Part shown: positions 6,766 through 17,582 of the stretch, piece after piece | Numbering within the stretch: position 1 is the first letter of the stretch | How the letters are laid out: each line of letters begins with the position of its first letter | Source of the DNA: a virus | DNA: 17,582 bases | Direction: 5' to 3' (one strand) | UHGV virus genome: UHGV-0144530 | Translations under genes and position numbers: made by a program | Notes under the pieces: generated by a model | What the model was told of the DNA's origin: nothing | Seen by the model: only the letters and a program-made list of their open reading frames with translations | The model's database searches: none

Positions 6766-7035
6766 TTACCTCGCCGTCAGTTGTTTTGATTTCCGGTAGC
6801 CTGCCGCGTAAATAGCTACGTTTGGCAGGCAAATACTTCCACTGCATTCATCTGCCTTCTTGCAGCGAAGGCTTCCGAGTGATGCTGCTTTATCTGCTCT
6901 GACGCAACCAGAGAGCTTTAGCGCAATTTTTCGTGCCAATCGCTGTTCTTGCATTGCCTGTTCACGTTGAGCCTGTCTGCGTGCTCTGCGGCGATTTCTG
7001 GCGTTATCATCAGCCAGATAAGTAACGATTATCAT
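6766..7035 (-). CDS. N: N-like transcription antiterminator (89 aa)
   Basis: arginine-rich motif NARNRRRARRQAQREQ near the N-terminus; strong RBS GGAGG 5 nt upstream of the ATG at 7035; lies downstream of nutL; ORF-track 6766..7164 is an unsupported in-frame 5' extension. Confidence 0.6.
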   Translation of the reverse strand: MIIVTYLADDNARNRRRARRQAQREQAMQEQRLARKIALKLSGCVRADKAASLGSLRCKKADECSGSICLPNVAIYAAGYRKSKQLTAR

Positions 7036-7465
7036 GTTGACCTCCGATGATTGGCTTTGGTGATTAGGTGGACGGTACTGATCTCCGGCTTGGTTAGTGC
7101 TTCGCCTGGTCATTATCACGCCTAGTGACCCCCTGAGGATCGTCTCCTCGCCAGTGCAGGTCATATCGCATCAGTCTGCGCATTCACCCAATCCCAAAGC
7201 CAACTACTCTTTGACTCACACTCTCGCAGTGAGCGCGCTCATGCCATTGAGTCTCTGCCGCTTCATCGCCGCTGATAACCGGTGCGCGTCTGGCATTCGC
7301 GCTGCTTTACCGGAGCTACTTTTAATATATTGACCCTAACCCGATGCTAAGCAGGCTCGCTCAATGGCGACTCAGGGCAGCATCATTACTGCTGCATTGC
7401 CTTTCGGCTGCGGTCTAACCGCGTTAGTGCACCATTACGGCACCTCCTGTTTGGTTAAACTCAGT

Positions 7466-8128: not shown

Positions 8129-8836
8129 TTACCAACTATGAGACGACCAGAATACTCTGCCAATAATCCTTACGGTTTCATGAAATTCATCTCTATCCAT
8201 TACTTCATCCGGGTACTCTTCGCGATTTATTGATCTGATTATCACCGATGTAGGGGTGGCGATTAATGTTTTTACTCGTAACAAATCAGACTGGCAAATA
8301 GCGTAGGTTTTACCATCTCTGATTGTGGTATCTTGCGTGTTAACACCAACAACATCGCCATCGTGAAGCGTTGGTTCCATGCTTTGCCCTACAACCCTAA
8401 CTAGCTTGGCTGATCTTTCTGATACTCCCATCTTTTTCAGATAGTGCTTTCTGAAAACCAAAGAGAACTCCGATGATTCCTCTAGCTCGCAGCTACCGCT
8501 TCCAGCTGAAAGCGAAACGTTAAGAAGAGGCAACGCAACAAACTCGTCATCGTTTCTTTTAATGTCTTCCCATACCACAGCTTTTAAAGATGACTCACGG
8601 ACATTGGATGGTTCTTCATGTGCACCATCCCTCATTTCACCAATACCAGAACTAAGCCATTCAGGACGCACTTTTAAAGCATTGGCTAATTCAACCATCT
8701 TGCGAGATCCGTTTGTTTTACCGGACGACATCTTCTGTATGGCTGGCTGAGATATTCCAACCATGTCAGCAAGCTGTGATTGTGATACCCCTGCTGAGCT
8801 CATGGCTGCATTTAGTCTTTCTGCGAATGTTTTCAT
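8129..8836 (-). CDS. cI: CI-type prophage repressor (HTH plus S24 LexA-like peptidase domain)
   Basis: N-terminal HTH (VSQSQLADMVGISQPAIQKM), Ala-Gly cleavage site in SLSAGSG, catalytic Ser in GQSMEPT and Lys in LRVKTL; ATG at 8836 abuts the operators; ORF-track 8129..8866 begins at an upstream TTG. Confidence 0.85.
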   Translation of the reverse strand: MKTFAERLNAAMSSAGVSQSQLADMVGISQPAIQKMSSGKTNGSRKMVELANALKVRPEWLSSGIGEMRDGAHEEPSNVRESSLKAVVWEDIKRNDDEFVALPLLNVSLSAGSGSCELEESSEFSLVFRKHYLKKMGVSERSAKLVRVVGQSMEPTLHDGDVVGVNTQDTTIRDGKTYAICQSDLLRVKTLIATPTSVIIRSINREEYPDEVMDRDEFHETVRIIGRVFWSSHSW

Positions 8837-8848
8837 ACTCACAAATCT

Positions 8849-8914
8849 ATAACTACGGTTATCCAAAGTAAAATAACAAAGGTTATTGCTATTTTTTATA
8901 ACTTGAGTTATCTT
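8849..8914. promoter_or_regulatory. OR operators with divergent pRM and pR
   Basis: three perfect 14 bp palindromes ATAAC-N4-GTTAT at 8849-8862, 8873-8886 and 8898-8911, centres 24-25 bp apart; plus-strand -35 TTGCTA (8886-8891), 17 bp spacer, -10 TATCTT (8909-8914). Confidence 0.65.
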
Positions 8915-10597: not shown

Positions 10598-10705
10598 ATG
10601 AAATCAAAAATCAAATCGCTACTGGTCGCTGGTTATAACCACGGCTGGTTAAGTATTTCGTTTGTCGATTTCTGGTTTAAAAATCTCAATCTGAGGGAAT
10701 CATGA
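10598..10705 (+). CDS. candidate small ORF (35 aa) coupled to the primase-helicase
   Basis: ATG at 10598 follows GGTGA and the O stop; its stop overlaps the primase-helicase start (ATGA); below the ORF-track cut-off. Confidence 0.25.
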   Translation: MKSKIKSLLVAGYNHGWLSISFVDFWFKNLNLRES

Positions 10706-12582
10706 GGCCAAGTGAACTTAGCGACCTGCTTTGGGCGCAGGTTGACAGGGTGGCTCCGCACCTGTTGCCAAATGGCAAGAAAGAGGGGCATGAGTGGGTT
10801 GCCGGTAACGTCAACGGTGACAAGGGAAACAGCCTTAAGGTCAACCTTAGCGGCAAGAAAAAATGGGCTGATTTCGCTGAGGGAGACGGCGGTGACATGC
10901 TTGATTTGTGGATGGCATGTCGTGGAATTAACCTGCATCAGGCTATGCAGGAAGCGAAAGCATTTCTCGGTATCAAGGATGACGATCACCATTTCGATGC
11001 CAGACGTGAGAAAAAATTCTCCAGACCTGATCGCAAGAAAATCGCCCGCTACGTTACCAGAACAGAATCCCATCTTGAGTACCTGCAATCGCGTGGCATA
11101 TCGCCAGAAATCGTAAAGCGCTACGAGGTTGTCAGCGGCAAGGTGTGGAATGGAGAGCGGGAACTGGATGCTCTGGTGATTCCGTACAAACGCGATGGTG
11201 AGTTGTTGCAGGTCAAGCGAATCAGCACTGAGCGCCCGGACGGGAAGAAAGTCATTATGGCAGAAGGTGATTGCGAACCTTGCCTGTTCGGATGGCAGGC
11301 TCTGGACGCTGGCGTGAGGGCGGTTGTACTTTGCGAAGGCGAAATTGATTGTATGAGCTATGCGCAATACGGCATCTCGGCGTTATCCGTACCGTTTGGT
11401 GGAGGGAAAGGCGCTAAGCAACAGTGGATTGAGTTTGAGTATCACAACCTCGACAGGTTTGAGGAAATATTCATCTCGATGGACGTTGATGATGTTGGTC
11501 GTGAAGCCGCAAGGGAAATCGCAAGCCGACTCGGTGAACATCGTTGCCGTCTTGTTACTCTGCCGTGCAAAGACATCAACGAATGCCTGATGAACGGTGT
11601 TACCGAGGATGAAATCTGGCAGTACATCGGCACGGCATCCTACTTCGATCCTGAAGAACTCTACAGCGCGCGAGAGTTTTACCAGGACACTATCAACGCT
11701 TTCTACGGCAAGCAGCAGTATCTGTTTAATCCACCGTGGGAATCTCTGGCAGATAAATTCCAGTTCCGTGAGGCAGAGTTGACGCTGGTCAATGGTGTGA
11801 ACGGTCACGGAAAAACGGAGGTTGTCGGGCATATGGCACTTGAGGCAATGCGTCAGGGTGTGAAGACGTGCATCGCGTCACTTGAGCTGAAGCCTGGTAT
11901 TCTCCTTAAGCGCCTTACCCGTCAGGCGACGTGCTGCAAGATGCCGCCAGTGCTGGAAATTGACTCTGCATTTAAATTTTATGACGAAAGACTTTGGGTG
12001 TTTGGCCTGACCGGAACGGCGAAAGCCGACAGGCTGATCGAAATATTCGACTACGCTCGCCGCCGATACGGGATCCAGTTATTCATCATCGACAGCCTGA
12101 TGAAATGTGGCATAGGCGACGATGACTATAACGGGCAGAAGGCGTTTGTTGACTCGATTTGCGACTTCAAAAACAAAACAAACTCCCACGTCATTCTCGT
12201 TACTCACTCGCGAAAAGGAGACAGCGAAGAAAAACCAACCGGGAAAATGGACGTAAAAGGCTCTGGAGCGATAACAGACCTGACAGACAACCTTTTCATC
12301 ATCTGGCGTAACAAGGCTCGCGAGAGAGCGTTACAGAGAGTTCAGAGTGGTGAAAAGATGTCAGAGAAGGACGAACAGCTACTGGCATCTCCGGCATCTG
12401 TTTTGATGCTTGAAAAACAACGTAACGGCGAAGGTTGGGAAGGTGGTGTCCCGTTGTTCCTTGACGAGCAATCGCACCAGTTCCTGCAACTTGAATCAGG
12501 ATCGCCATATAGCTACATCGCCAATATGCCGAAATCGGAATATGACGAGGCGTGGCGACAGGAAAACGTGACGGAGTATTAA
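10702..12582 (+). CDS. bifunctional DNA primase-helicase (TOPRIM plus DnaB-like RecA-fold helicase)
   Basis: 626 aa; TOPRIM-like acidic segments (VVLCEGEIDCMSY, ISMDVDDVGRE) in the N-terminal half; helicase Walker A GVNGHGKT and Walker B LFIIDSL in the C-terminal half; occupies the slot of lambda P. Confidence 0.75.
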   Translation: MRPSELSDLLWAQVDRVAPHLLPNGKKEGHEWVAGNVNGDKGNSLKVNLSGKKKWADFAEGDGGDMLDLWMACRGINLHQAMQEAKAFLGIKDDDHHFDARREKKFSRPDRKKIARYVTRTESHLEYLQSRGISPEIVKRYEVVSGKVWNGERELDALVIPYKRDGELLQVKRISTERPDGKKVIMAEGDCEPCLFGWQALDAGVRAVVLCEGEIDCMSYAQYGISALSVPFGGGKGAKQQWIEFEYHNLDRFEEIFISMDVDDVGREAAREIASRLGEHRCRLVTLPCKDINECLMNGVTEDEIWQYIGTASYFDPEELYSAREFYQDTINAFYGKQQYLFNPPWESLADKFQFREAELTLVNGVNGHGKTEVVGHMALEAMRQGVKTCIASLELKPGILLKRLTRQATCCKMPPVLEIDSAFKFYDERLWVFGLTGTAKADRLIEIFDYARRRYGIQLFIIDSLMKCGIGDDDYNGQKAFVDSICDFKNKTNSHVILVTHSRKGDSEEKPTGKMDVKGSGAITDLTDNLFIIWRNKARERALQRVQSGEKMSEKDEQLLASPASVLMLEKQRNGEGWEGGVPLFLDEQSHQFLQLESGSPYSYIANMPKSEYDEAWRQENVTEY

Positions 12583-12687
12583 ATGACAATCTACATCACT
12601 GAGCTAATAGCAGGGTTATCGTTACTAATGGTTCTTACTGTATATATTATTAAGTATATTCTTTATGCGAATAAAAAAAACAATTGA
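12583..12687 (+). CDS. candidate single-TM micro-protein (34 aa)
   Basis: MTIYITELIAGLSLLMVLTVYIIKYILYANKKNN; the ATG directly follows the primase-helicase stop, with GGAG 8 nt upstream; AT-rich; its 3' end overlaps the HNH start across an A8 tract. Confidence 0.3.
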   Translation: MTIYITELIAGLSLLMVLTVYIIKYILYANKKNN

Positions 12688-13276
12688 TCACGATGAGCTT
12701 CTGTCAACATTATCATATGACTCAGAAACAGGAATATTTAAATGGCTAAAAACAAATTCAGTAGTAAGAGTAAAAGGTAGTATTGCTGGAGGTGTTAGTG
12801 GTGGTTATATATGCATTAGCATAAATAATGTTTTGTATTATGCGCATAGGCTTGCTTGGTTCTATGTATACAAAAAATGGCCTCCTAAGTTTATTGATCA
12901 TGTAAATGGGAACAGACTTGACAATAGGATTTCAAATCTAAGACTGGCAACAGAGGAGCAGAATGCAAGAAACATTGTAGGTAATAGGTTAAACACATCC
13001 GGTGCGATTGGAGTGTCTTGGGATAAGACAACTGGCAGGTGGAAGTCTTATGTTGGTTATAAAAATAAGACAATATCGTTAGGGTATTTCGATAGCAAAG
13101 AAGATGCAGCATTCATAGCAGCACTAGCAAGAAAGAAACTATATGGAACTTATGCGAGTAAAGCACTTAATTGCGAGCATGAGCTTTTATCTCAATTTAA
13201 TAATGATGAGGATAAACTTGCGGAATATCTTAAGGAAAAATCTAAAAGGACTCGAAAGCGTGTTAAAAAAAGATAA
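12665..13276 (+). CDS. HNH endonuclease with C-terminal AP2 DNA-binding domain (homing-endonuclease-like)
   Basis: HNH_3-type motif YAHRLAWFYVYKKWPPKFIDHVNGNRLDNRISNLRLATEEQNARN followed by an AP2-like segment SGAIGVSWDKTTGRWKSYVGYKNKTISLGYFDSKEDAAFIA; AT-rich codon usage; no obvious RBS. Confidence 0.75.
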   Translation: MRIKKTIDHDELLSTLSYDSETGIFKWLKTNSVVRVKGSIAGGVSGGYICISINNVLYYAHRLAWFYVYKKWPPKFIDHVNGNRLDNRISNLRLATEEQNARNIVGNRLNTSGAIGVSWDKTTGRWKSYVGYKNKTISLGYFDSKEDAAFIAALARKKLYGTYASKALNCEHELLSQFNNDEDKLAEYLKEKSKRTRKRVKKR

Positions 13277-13277
13277 A

Positions 13278-13308
13278 GGCCTGCTGGTAATCGCAGGTCT
13301 TTTTATTT
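13278..13308 (+). terminator. intrinsic terminator after the HNH gene
   Basis: CCTGC-tggtaatc-GCAGG followed by TCTTTTTATTT. Confidence 0.5.
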
Positions 13309-13323
13309 GGGGGAGAGTAAATC

Positions 13324-13530
13324 GTGGCTGAGTTAATTTTCTCTGCATTGAGGCTTCTCGGTGCTATGTGGATGGTGGCGACGTTCATTGTGATTGCTGG
13401 CTGTTTTGTCCGGTTGGTAGGCGAAGGTAAAGACCTGGTGGGTGTGCTTTTCGGTAGCATTCTCCTGTGGGTGATTATCGGTGTTGCGCCTGTTGCTGTA
13501 GCAAAAATGGCGTGGCGTTTTGTTAGTTGA
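13324..13530 (+). CDS. small two-helix membrane protein (68 aa)
   Basis: GTG start with RBS GGGGGAGAG 6 nt upstream; two hydrophobic segments (MWMVATFIVIAGCFV and VLFGSILLWVIIGVAPVAVA); lies in the slot lambda ren occupies. Confidence 0.5.
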   Translation: MAELIFSALRLLGAMWMVATFIVIAGCFVRLVGEGKDLVGVLFGSILLWVIIGVAPVAVAKMAWRFVS

Positions 13531-13537
13531 GGTGACA

Positions 13538-13948
13538 ATGAAGCAAACAATCTTCCTCCGAACTAAGCAACAACAGCAAGCTGCAATAAATGCCATCCTC
13601 GCAACACCACTCGATAAAGACAAGCCAGTCACCATCCGCATTACTGACTACAAGCGCAACCTTGACCAGAACGCAAAATTTCACGCGATGCTGGCGGATA
13701 TCGCACGTCAGGTTCAATGGTGCGGCAAATGGTTAAAACCAGAACAATGGAAGGTTTTGTTGATTAGCGGTCATGCAGTGGCAACAAAGCAGGAAGCTGA
13801 TGTTTTGTCCGGCCTTGAAGGCGAATACGTCAACATTCGCGAAAGTAGCGCGCAGATGAGTGTGAAGCGTATGGCAAGTCTGATTGAGTACACGACAGCA
13901 TGGGCTATTGGTCAGGGCGTCAGATTTACCGACAGGAGGTACGAATGA
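13538..13948 (+). CDS. ninB: NinB-family recombination protein
   Basis: first gene of a lambda-like nin cluster; similar to lambda NinB in length and in motifs such as LDQNxK and the run of aromatic and basic residues; RBS GAGGTGA; ORF-track TTG start 13520 replaced by the ATG at 13538. Confidence 0.65.
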
Positions 13949-14127
13949 GACGACAGCGACGAAGTATCACCGACATAATCTGCGAAAACTGCAAATACCT
14001 TCCAACGAAACGCTCCAGAAATAAACGCAAGCCAATCCCAAAAGAATCTGACGTAAAAACCTTCAATTACACGGCTCACCTGTGGGATATCCGGTGGCTT
14101 AGAGAACGTGCGAGGAAAACAAGGTGA
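13945..14127 (+). CDS. ninE: NinE
   Basis: 60 aa [60 protein letters not shown], recognised as lambda NinE; ATG overlaps the ninB stop. Confidence 0.75.
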
Positions 14128-14294
14128 TTGACCCAAATCGAAGTTACGAACAAGGAAGTGTCGAGCGAGCTTTAACGTGCGCTAACTGCGGTCAGAAGCT
14201 GCATGTGCTGGAAGTTCACGTGTGTGAGCACTGCTGCGCAGAACTGATGAGCGATCCGAATAGCTCGATGCACGAGGAAGAAGACGATGGCTAA
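14124..14294 (+). CDS. ninF: NinF
   Basis: 56 aa from GTG 14124 (overlapping the ninE stop, GTGA); Cys-rich sequence ...[29 protein letters not shown]... recognised as lambda NinF; below the ORF-track cut-off. Confidence 0.65.
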
Positions 14295-15101: not shown

Positions 15102-15744
15102 TGGCAGCAAATACCGAAATATTTGGGTAGTTGGCGATCTGCACGGATGCTACACGAACCTGATGAAAAAACTGGAGACGATAGGATTCGACACCAAAAA
15201 AGACCTGCTTATCTCGGTGGGCGATTTGGTTGATCGCGGTACAGAGAACGTCGAATGCCTGGAATTAATCACATTCCCCTGGTTCAGAGCTGTACGTGGA
15301 AACCATGAGCAAATGATGATTGATGGCTTATCAGAGCGTGGAAACGTCAATCACTGGCTGCTTAATGGCGGTGGCTGGTTCTTTAATCTCGATTACGACA
15401 AAGAAATTCTGGCTAAAGCTCTTGCCCATAAAGCAGATGAACTTCCGTTAATCATCGAACTGGTGAGTAAAGGAAAAAAATATGTCATCTGCCACGCCGA
15501 TTATCCTTGTGATAAATACGAGTTTGGAAAGCCAGTTGATCATCAGCAGGTAATCTGGAACCGCGAACGAATCAGCAACTCACAAGACGGGATCGTGAAA
15601 GAAATCAAAGGCGCGGACACGTTCATCTTTGGTCATACGCCAGCAGTGAAACCACTCAAGTTTGCCAACCAGATGTATATCGATACCGGCGCAGTGTTCT
15701 GCGGAAACCTCACATTGATTCAGGTACAGGGAGAAGGCGCATGA
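15079..15744 (+). CDS. ninI: NinI serine/threonine protein phosphatase
   Basis: metallophosphatase motifs GDLHGC, GDLVDRG and GNHE; near-identical to lambda NinI; ATG at 15079 preferred over the ORF-track GTG at 15070. Confidence 0.85.
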
Positions 15745-16364
15745 GACTCGAAAGCGTAGCTAAATTTCATTCGCCAAAAAGCCCGATGATGAGCGACTCA
15801 CCACGGGCTACTGCTTCTGACTCTCTTTCCGGTACTGATGTGATGGCTGCTATGGGGATGGCGCAATCACAAGCCGGATTCGGAATGGCTGCATTCTGTG
15901 GTAAGCACGAACTCAGCCAGAATGACAAACAAAAGGCTATCAACTATCTGATGCAATTTGCACACAAGGTATCGGGGAAATACCGTGGCGTGGCAAAGCT
16001 TGAAGGAAATACTAAGGCAAAGGTACTGCAAGTGCTCGCAACATTCGCTTATGCGGATTATTGCCGTAGTGCCGCTACGCCGGGCGCAAGATGCAGAGAT
16101 TGCCACGGTACAGGCCGTGCGGTAGATATAGCAAAAACAGAGCAGTGGGGGAGAGTTGTTGAGAAAGAGTGCGGAAGATGCAAAGGCGTCGGCTATTCCA
16201 GGATGCCAGCAAGCGCCGCATATCGCGCTGTAACGATGCTAATCCCAAACCTTACCCAACCCACCTGGTCACGCACTGTTAAGCCGCTGTATGACGCTCT
16301 GGTGGTGCAATGCCACAAAGAAGAGTCAATCGCAGACAACATTTTGAATGCGGTCACACGTTAG
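15741..16364 (+). CDS. Q: Q late-gene antiterminator
   Basis: 207 aa, lambda Q type, with the zinc-binding Cys cluster CRDCHGTG...CGRCKG; ATGA overlap with ninI. Confidence 0.9.
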
Positions 16365-16778: not shown

Positions 16779-16801
16779 CCCCTTATTGGGGGTAAGACAT
16801 G
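16779..16801 (+). promoter_or_regulatory. sdi-like stem-loop and dual-start translational control region of S
   Basis: CCCC-ttatt-GGGGG hairpin overlapping the Shine-Dalgarno sequence just upstream of ATG-AAG-ATG (Met1-Lys2-Met3). Confidence 0.6.
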
Positions 16802-17122
16802 AAGATGCCAGAAAAAAATGACCTGTTAGCCGCCATTCTCGCGGCAAAGGAACAAGGCATCGGGGCAATCCTTGCGTTTGCAATGGCGTACCTTCGCGGC
16901 AGATATAATGGCGGTGCGTTTACAAAAACAGTAATCGACGCAACGATGTGCGCCATTATCGCCTGGTTCATTCGTGATCTTCTCGACCTCGCCGGACTAA
17001 GTAGCAATCTCGCTTATATAACGAGCGTGTTCATCGGCTACATCGGTACTGACTCGATTGGTTCGCTTATCAAACGCTTCGCTGCTAAAAAAGCCGGAGT
17101 AGAAGATGGTGGAAATCAATAA
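16799..17122 (+). CDS. S: holin S (class I, dual-start S107/S105)
   Basis: 107 aa beginning MKMPEK, three hydrophobic segments and a charged C-terminus; lambda S type. Confidence 0.95.
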
Positions 17123-17582
17123 TCAACGTAAGGCGTTCCTCGATATGCTGGCGTGGTCAGAGGGAACTGATAACGGACGTCAGAAAACCAGAAATCATGG
17201 TTATGACGTCATTGTTGGCGGAGAGCTATTCACTGATTACTCCGATCACCCTCGCAAACTTGTCACGCTAAACCCAAAACTCAAATCAACAGCAGCCGGA
17301 CGTTACCAGCTTCTTTCCCGTTGGTGGGATGCCTATCGTAAGCAGCTTGGCCTGAAAGACTTCTCTCCGAAAAGCCAGGACGCTGTGGCACTGCAACAGA
17401 TTAAAGAGCGTGGCGCTTTACCGATGATTGATCGCGGTGATATTCGTCAGGCTATCGACCGTTGCAGCAATATCTGGGCTTCACTGCCGGGCGCTGGTTA
17501 TGGTCAGTTCGAGCATAAGGCTGACAGCCTGATTGCAAAATTCAAAGAAGCAGGCGGAACGGTCAGAGAGATTGAGGTATGA
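17106..17582 (+). CDS. R: endolysin R (lytic transglycosylase)
   Basis: 158 aa; N-terminal catalytic region [24 protein letters not shown] with the catalytic Glu; lambda R type; complete, stop at 17580-17582. Confidence 0.95.

Follow-up and report, generated by a model that had tools for sequence, protein, structure and literature searches.

What is encoded by the 68-codon reading frame that lies between a homing endonuclease gene and ninB in the virus genome UHGV-0144530, and what would its product do? The whole stretch of DNA analysed, referred to here as the window, is 17,582 nucleotides long and is a typical lambdoid early region ( Table 1 ). The original prediction, made from the letters of the sequence, had described this frame (here ORF68) as a well-initiated ORF for a small protein with two transmembrane helices that could not be assigned to any family, had placed it where lambda has ren, and had considered toxin-like or exclusion roles. 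Its place between the HNH gene and ninB and its start behind a good ribosome binding site (RBS) are as predicted. ORF68 belongs to the nin region, upstream of Q and about 3.3 kb upstream of the lysis cassette.

Table 1. Features of the window, with positions counted from its first nucleotide.
Feature	Position	Strand	Remarks
N-like antiterminator	6766-7164	-	
cI	8129-8866	-	
cro, cII, O-like gene			between cI and the primase-helicase in gene order
Primase-helicase	10702-12582		followed in order by HNH, tR2, ORF68, ninB, ninE, ninF, ninG, ninH and NinI phosphatase
ninA 5' stub (MTIYITELI...)	12583-12687	+	extended to 34 aa by the HNH island; marks the split point of the tR2 module
HNH-AP2 homing endonuclease island	~12615-13272	+	CDS 12665-13276; Pfam HNH_3 (8e-16), AP2
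tR2-type intrinsic terminator	13275-13308	+	stem 13275-13284 / 13293-13302, 8-nt loop, then TTTTTATTT; terminator scan
ORF68 Shine-Dalgarno GGGGGAGAG	13309-13317	+	6 nt 5' of the GTG
ORF68 CDS	13324-13530	+	GTG start, 68 codons, TGA stop; PHROG 1165; equals HK022 gp58, HK75_43
ORF68 TM1	13354-13410	+	codons 11-29; conserved K/R10 before, near-invariant W16 inside; hydropathy, alignments
ORF68 connecting loop	13411-13443	+	codons 30-40; family motif V-N-x-G-x-D-P; predicted periplasmic
ORF68 TM2	13444-13500	+	codons 41-59; hydropathy
ORF68 most conserved block	13468-13521	+	codons 49-66; predicted cytoplasm-proximal half of TM2 plus interfacial tail
ninB (Orf recombination mediator)	13538-13948	+	Pfam NinB (9.2e-55); 7 nt after the ORF68 stop
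Q	15741-16364		
lambda-family holin	16799-17122		holin and endolysin together 16799-17582, downstream of Q

Coding evidence for ORF68

A length of 68 codons is in itself little evidence for a gene, since the window holds 84 mechanically called ORFs of at least 55 amino acids. ORF68, whose product is MAELIFSALRLLGAMWMVATFIVIAGCFVRLVGEGKDLVGVLFGSILLWVIIGVAPVAVAKMAWRFVS, was therefore compared among eight homologous DNAs, which fall into three classes: the window, HK630 and HK022 (class 1), HK633, mEp213 and one E. coli prophage (class 2), and two Salmonella P22-like phages (class 3). Frame +1 is the sole frame free of stops in all eight. Substitutions between classes number 27, 18 and 33 at codon positions 1, 2 and 3, respectively, with dS of 1.0-2.0 (saturated synonymous sites), dN/dS of about 0.25-0.45, no indels and 68 codons throughout; within classes dN/dS is near 1, a noisy value drawn from small counts. 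The start site is kept behind the same RBS, as GTG in the E. coli phages and as ATG in the Salmonella phages, and among 116 full-length class 1 cluster representatives nearly all variation exchanges one hydrophobic residue for another. Given this conservation among homologues, ORF68 is, as judged by sequence comparison, a genuine protein-coding gene, and its dN/dS between classes points to moderate constraint only.

Other readings of the same DNA were discarded. The internal start at Met15 used in the HK630 annotation falls on a residue that is Gly in classes 2 and 3. Two antisense ORFs, at 13263-13550 (- strand, 95 aa) and 13333-13641 (- strand, 102 aa), were rejected on the substitution pattern, which is that of the + frame. 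Avoidance of the codons TTA, CTA and TCA on the sense strand leaves frame -1 open across ORF68 in six of the eight homologues, and the antisense ORFs appear to be side effects of the hydrophobic coding there. A consensus scan, which weak or non-consensus promoters could escape, found nothing promoter-like on the - strand from which 13324-13530 would be transcribed.

ORF68 is itself mosaic, with a recombination joint inside the gene (window 13462-13527, codons 47-68). Between classes 1 and 2, pS is 0.19-0.25 at codons 47-68, as against 0.75 (saturated) at codons 2-46, and a natural recombinant (P0147) combines a class 1 N-terminal part with a class 2 middle. Between the window and the Salmonella copy sal5, codons 47-68 differ with pS of 0.57 and pN of 0.16.

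Position behind tR2 and the optional cargo slot

In lambda, P is followed by ren, by the mini-ORF ninA (MTIYITELITGLLVIAGLFIWGR...), whose frame extends across the tR2 hairpin AGGCCTGCTGGTAATCGCAGGCCTTTTTATTT, and then by GGGGGAGAGGGAAGTC and the ninB ATG; the arrangement of the region from ren/P to ninB is the same in P22. The hairpin of the window, whose RNA fold is calculated at -16.2 kcal/mol, is the one found in lambda and P22 between ren/P and ninB, save for one G.U-preserving change of C to T. It is annotated as a terminator in the HK75 record, and in the P22 record as a terminator similar to lambda's. The start of ORF68, 21 nt downstream from the tR2 stem, takes the place of the ninB start codon of lambda and P22, and the RBS of the gene, GGGGGAGAG, is the same G-rich RBS that serves ninB in those phages. 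In the window ninB has a Shine-Dalgarno of its own, GAGGTG, which overlaps the ORF68 stop codon; this overlap and the short gap between the two genes suggest that they are probably co-transcribed. ORF68 is best described, from this layout, as an insert between tR2 and ninB that has captured the ninB RBS of lambda and P22.

The position originally proposed for ORF68, that of lambda ren, is therefore not the right one. Lambda ren (40280-40570) lies upstream of tR2, ORF68 downstream, and a BLASTP comparison of ORF68 with Ren gave no alignment at E <= 100, so that a ren analogue is ruled out. Both are non-essential genes between the replication genes and ninB, but Ren has 96 aa and an unlike sequence, and is not the membrane hairpin predicted for ORF68. 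The correction to the annotation is thus a positional one: not an analogue of ren but a tR2/ninB insert on the ninB RBS.

The HNH island lies in the same neighbourhood. It sits inside ninA, between the first ~10 codons and the tR2 hairpin, and has a GC content of 0.34, compared with about 0.50 in its flanks. The first 32 nt of the ninA stub match ninA of lambda, P22 and HK630, and residues 1-12 give a weak phrog_5907 match. About 8 nt of HK630 sequence align to both junctions of the island, which is absent in HK630; HK022 has the same arrangement as the window, with 97.7% identity over 12583-13530. The tR2 stem shares its first two bases with the stop codon of the HNH gene (13274-13276). The island is functionally untied to ORF68: a link of ORF68 to the HNH island, to a specific replication module or to a virion type was rejected, as it occurs with all of them.

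In lambda (1069-1144 of locus L012), P22 (674-754 of L013) and HK630 (2477-2560 of L001) the ninA frame has 26-27 codons, continues without a break across the tR2 hairpin and is TM-like in its own right; its terminal TGA in HK630 overlaps the region of the ORF68 GTG. Ribosomes translating ninA could interfere with formation of the hairpin and so modulate termination. In proteins P0121, P0123, P0125 and P0128 of Salmonella prophages, of 93-94 aa, ninA is fused in frame to ORF68. From the protein sequences, these fusions appear to be due to changes of one base in the T-run or the G-run that separates the tR2 stem from the RBS, and may be either real variants, in which a shorter T-run weakens the terminator, or homopolymer sequencing errors.

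On the + strand no promoter-like site was found by the consensus scan from 12400 to the ORF68 start, and the terminator scan found no terminator between ORF68 and ninB. With tR2 directly upstream and no such promoter-like site, expression of ORF68 probably depends entirely on the pR transcript antiterminated by N. From the established behaviour of tR2 and N in lambda, it would be silent in lysogens and appear as a delayed-early product after antitermination; we infer N-dependent, lytic timing.

The occupancy of the position behind tR2 was assessed in a sample of at least 120 IMG/VR loci carrying the exact 40-mer of tR2 and RBS, in which the first gene after the RBS was tallied. In at least 62 of them ninB follows directly, and in at least 22 an intact ORF68, always of 68 aa, with at least 21 GTG starts and at least one ATG; at least two loci have a frameshifted ORF68. 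The remainder carry a 108-aa protein with an N-terminal anchor (VADWQIPIIILAGASLVAGFILLKK...; at least 11 loci), a protein of about 92-105 aa in which no hydrophobic segment was seen by eye (VNDSYRQFENWW...; at least nine), a 93-aa N-anchored protein (MKDLLVTLNVGLSLLGYAYIMF...; at least one) or an ORF of 34-60 aa (MNLD...; at least three), while at least eight had no ORF called by the criteria used and at least two were too short. Loci with such alternative first genes include L096:669, L026 (- strand) and L056:300. Among the loci listed, ORF68 is thus the optional first gene after tR2 in about a fifth of the lambda-like phages sampled, and it is absent from lambda, P22 and roughly half of the tR2-bearing phages. 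The slot holds, in other phages, at least two other small membrane-anchored proteins.

ORF68 is carried by lambda-like, HK97-like, P22-like and Stx phages, some of which have the HNH island and some not, together with replication modules of the O/DnaB type, the primase-helicase type and others. This breadth indicates a function independent of any one virion, lysis or replication module. Roughly 10% of the copies are disrupted, a proportion that fits a marginal function. Disrupted copies include L010, L011, L067 and L133; codon 15 has become a stop in an Stx1a phage, and a Salmonella phage has a frameshifted tail. Lying directly after tR2 on the ninB RBS of lambda and P22, ORF68 is optional cargo in a hot spot, and on the comparisons made here it is a dispensable accessory gene of lambdoid phages. 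According to one paper (PMC5630979), the nin-region gene pool comprises 30-50 genes, for the most part uncharacterised, and a given phage has about 10 of them.

In one E. coli prophage (L004, 3281-3484) a 67-aa ORF with no hydrophobic segment by eye is found between ORF68 and ninB. Its C-terminus (..AIRAAGIKVKE) resembles the ~92-aa post-tR2 protein, which suggests cassette shuffling of the cargo genes.

Protein family and predicted membrane architecture

That ORF68 fits no family holds for families of known function, but the protein does have a family of its own: it matches the PHROG 1165 profile over its full length (E 3.6e-35, 121.5 bits, residues 1-68 on positions 1-68 of 68), a profile annotated as of unknown function. 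Further PHROG matches are to unknown-function families only. The family occurs in 107 phage records, and every locus examined has a lambdoid prophage context. Its named members HK022 gp58, HK75_43, HK633_054 and mEp213_058 are all lambdoid 'hypothetical proteins'. In its nucleotides the segment shares 90-96% identity with HK022 (gene 58), HK75 (HK75_43), HK629, HK630, mEpX1 and Kapi1, and likewise with the copies in 48 Stx2a-converting phages. ORF68 is present in 559 of 5426 complete E. coli genomes (~10%). The identical protein is encoded on 58 public contigs, each time under the name "hypothetical protein", and one member of its cluster is annotated "membrane protein". ORF68 is, in short, an ordinary accessory gene, already catalogued as a hypothetical protein in HK022, HK75, Stx2a phages and hundreds of E. 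coli genomes; nothing sets it apart from PHROG 1165, to which it belongs.

More distant members are few. An exhaustive HMM search of 1.84 billion representative proteins returned only 25 matches, all of 38-85 aa. The distant relatives, of 62-66 aa and 25-35% identity, keep the two-helix layout and the shared motif, and are confined to prophages of Enterobacterales (Erwinia, Izhakiella, Pantoea and Serratia); a narrower alignment search of loci recovered three Erwiniaceae loci. They reside in early accessory arrays, most of them directly after the replication genes, with a few small ORFs, ahead of ninB (L014, L018-L020), and in one case (L015) on the pL arm after CIII and RecT.

Searches of other resources gave no functional lead. 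No match was obtained for ORF68 in Pfam at E <= 1, for ORF68 and the distant relatives in NCBIfam, or for ORF68 and five relatives in PADLOC and likewise in Pfam. A sequence-profile search of the PDB gave chance matches only (E > 0.5; ClC and phosphate transporters), and Foldseek against BFVD and the PDB retrieved generic helical hairpins, with best E values of 0.73 and 2.3. Rfam gave no match over 12400-14200, and the reading of the segment as an RNA element was dropped on that ground. The literature searches returned no study of this gene.

The two transmembrane helices originally predicted are borne out by hydropathy and by the structural model. The best 19-residue hydrophobic windows, residues 11-29 and 41-59, have Kyte-Doolittle means of 2.32 and 2.54 and summed Hessa values of -1.6 and -0.25 kcal/mol, and the GRAVY of the whole protein is 1.55. 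AlphaFold2, run with a 16-sequence alignment, predicts a hairpin of helices 2-33 and 38-67 with a mean pLDDT of 89.4. The helices hold no charged residues, and T20 and S45 are their only polar ones; TM2 is rich in small residues (G40, G44, S45, G53, A55, A58 and A60). Outside the membrane there would remain an N-terminal stretch of at most 10 residues, a loop of about 8 and the 8-residue C-terminal tail KMAWRFVS, with a charge of +2. ORF68 is accordingly modelled as a 68-residue helical-hairpin protein of the inner membrane.

As to topology, K/R residues at positions 10, 61 and 65 lie on one side and R30 and K36 in the loop, where they are balanced by E34 and D37 (net charge 0). This distribution, three against two, is a weak positive-inside signal that slightly favours both termini inside; we infer an N-in/C-in arrangement.

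The signature of the family is K/R10-x5-W16 ... V-N-x-G-x-D-P ... W49-x3-G53-x2-P56-V-x2-[AV]-K61-x-[AG]-W64-x-[FY], of which the last part, from W49 onwards, is the motif of codons 49-66. Among 18 sequences, reaching down to 25% identity, G53, P56 and W64 never vary, and conservation is at least 90% at W16 and W49. A search for one conserved face of the helices gave a conservation moment of only 0.07-0.08; conservation is concentrated by depth, at residues 49-66. The idea of a one-face binding surface was dropped on this account, and with conservation not limited to one face the helices present no clear binding surface.

Candidate functions

The explanation that we favour, tentatively, is that ORF68 is produced during lytic growth and modulates, from within the membrane, some inner-membrane protein of the host. 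N would antiterminate tR2, so that the pR transcript reaches ORF68, the first cistron downstream, in lytic development only. The protein would insert as a hairpin with both short termini in the cytoplasm and the loop of about 8 residues in the periplasm, and its helices would bind a host inner-membrane protein helix to helix, in the manner of small bacterial membrane regulators. The outcome could be a block to DNA entry by superinfecting phages during the lytic cycle, or the tuning of a host transporter or protease; target and phenotype are speculative. Being almost entirely membrane-embedded, ORF68 can act only within the membrane. With almost no soluble part, very apolar helices and a conserved cluster of W49, G53, P56, K61 and W64, helix-helix binding, rather than pore formation, would be its most likely mode of action.

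Small membrane proteins are described as regulators of larger membrane proteins in a published account (PMC11539335). ORF68 resembles the AcrZ, MgtS, MgrB and SgrT class in being almost wholly embedded in the membrane and in having no enzymatic domain, so that its function would have to come from intramembrane contacts; those proteins, however, are mostly single-TM host proteins and share no homology with it. T4 Imm, an early superinfection-immunity membrane protein of lytic growth, is likewise a small early lytic protein of the inner membrane, and by analogy ORF68 may act similarly, although the two have no sequence relationship (no Pfam match for ORF68 at E <= 1).

A membrane-permeabilising toxin or lysis-timing factor is a less likely interpretation than an intramembrane modulator, and in our estimate an unlikely one. 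As a holin-, pinholin- or antiholin-like protein, ORF68 would oligomerise and depolarise or perforate the inner membrane, shutting the host down or setting the lysis clock. Small hydrophobic phage proteins are often toxic on overexpression, and the class II holin S68 of phage 21 is about 68 aa long with two TM helices; ORF68, within the range of ~65-95 aa of class II holins and pinholins, matches their size and layout, and the small residues of TM2 would suit such a role. Against this, ORF68 is not beside an endolysin or in a late, Q-dependent cassette: it belongs to the early operon upstream of Q, not to late pR', and the lysis cassette ~3.3 kb away already holds a lambda-family holin. Its N-terminus, M-A-E-L, offers no dual-start motif, since conservation does not extend to any further in-frame Met close to the start (class 2 has G in place of M15). 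In place of the charged C-terminal domain of those holins it has only the 8-residue +2 tail; no holin family matched in Pfam or PHROGs, and the very apolar helices lack a charged or polar face. Early depolarisation is known to trigger lambda-type holins prematurely and to abort the burst, so that early membrane depolarisation by ORF68 should be counter-selected in a phage with such a holin downstream. That ORF68 would badly damage the membrane at natural levels of expression is made less likely both by its very apolar helices and by its early expression, ahead of a lambda-type holin. Type I toxins such as Hok, TisB and Ldr are also small and very hydrophobic inner-membrane proteins, but they have one helix and fewer than 60 aa as compared with the two TM helices and 68 aa of ORF68, which lies in a polycistronic phage operon with no promoter-like site of its own found, none in the consensus scan of the - strand for an antisense RNA across it, and no Rfam match.

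Still less probable, and again behind the intramembrane modulator, is a moron-like gene for superinfection exclusion or lysogenic conversion, expressed from the prophage and guarding lysogens at the inner membrane. T4 Imm and HK97 gp15 are examples of small inner-membrane exclusion factors, ORF68 is optional cargo in a recombination hot spot, and its TM1 and loop diverge between classes while the C-terminus is kept, all of which would be compatible with such a gene. But morons carry their own promoter and a downstream terminator, whereas the terminator of ORF68 lies upstream, 21 nt before its start, with none between the gene and ninB and nothing promoter-like on the + strand from 12400 to the start; the gene is packed against ninB inside the pR operon. 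PADLOC gave no match, and neither did Pfam, hence none to a superinfection-immunity family. The classical, prophage-expressed form of the exclusion role first considered for ORF68 is disfavoured by the terminator directly upstream and the lack of a promoter-like site.

Also very improbable is that ORF68 is conserved but near-neutral, hitch-hiking with the recombinogenic tR2/ninA segment and perhaps not usefully translated: the GTG start, the absence from many tR2-bearing phages including lambda and P22, the disrupted copies and the noisy within-class dN/dS near 1 would suit it, but the 68-codon length is kept despite saturated synonymous sites, with dN/dS below 0.5, and relatives from Erwiniaceae and Serratia (25-35% identity) without tR2 DNA keep W16, W49, G53, P56 and W64, which hitch-hiking of DNA cannot explain.

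A wider proposal may be considered, which we regard as quite doubtful: the ORF68 family would represent an unrecognised class of early intramembrane effectors, in which the conserved block formed by TM2 and the tail binds a host inner-membrane component needed for DNA entry by competitors or for membrane-acting abortive infection, and the post-tR2 slot would be a cargo hot spot for exclusion and counter-defence factors, in Stx2a phages among others. As it stands, ORF68 matters little, being one of many small hydrophobic phage ORFs without an assigned function. Were a function found it would matter, given that many Shiga-toxin phages and about a tenth of complete E. coli genomes carry it, and given its inferred early lytic expression. 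It also points to a cargo slot behind tR2 that is well delimited, easy to engineer and could be mined for host-takeover or exclusion factors.

Two neighbouring annotations deserve comment. In the window the mechanical ORF of ninE spans 13900-14127, and its Pfam NinE match begins at residue 16; the true start is probably the ATG at 13945, in an ATGA overlap with the ninB stop that is typical of the tight packing of the nin region. In Salmonella phage S9-5 (L009) an intact but unannotated homologue of ORF68 lies at 2501-2707, with no tR2 upstream and with an AGGAGG RBS of its own; as annotated, the helicase gene runs at its 3' end into this homologue, and its annotation may thus be over-extended.
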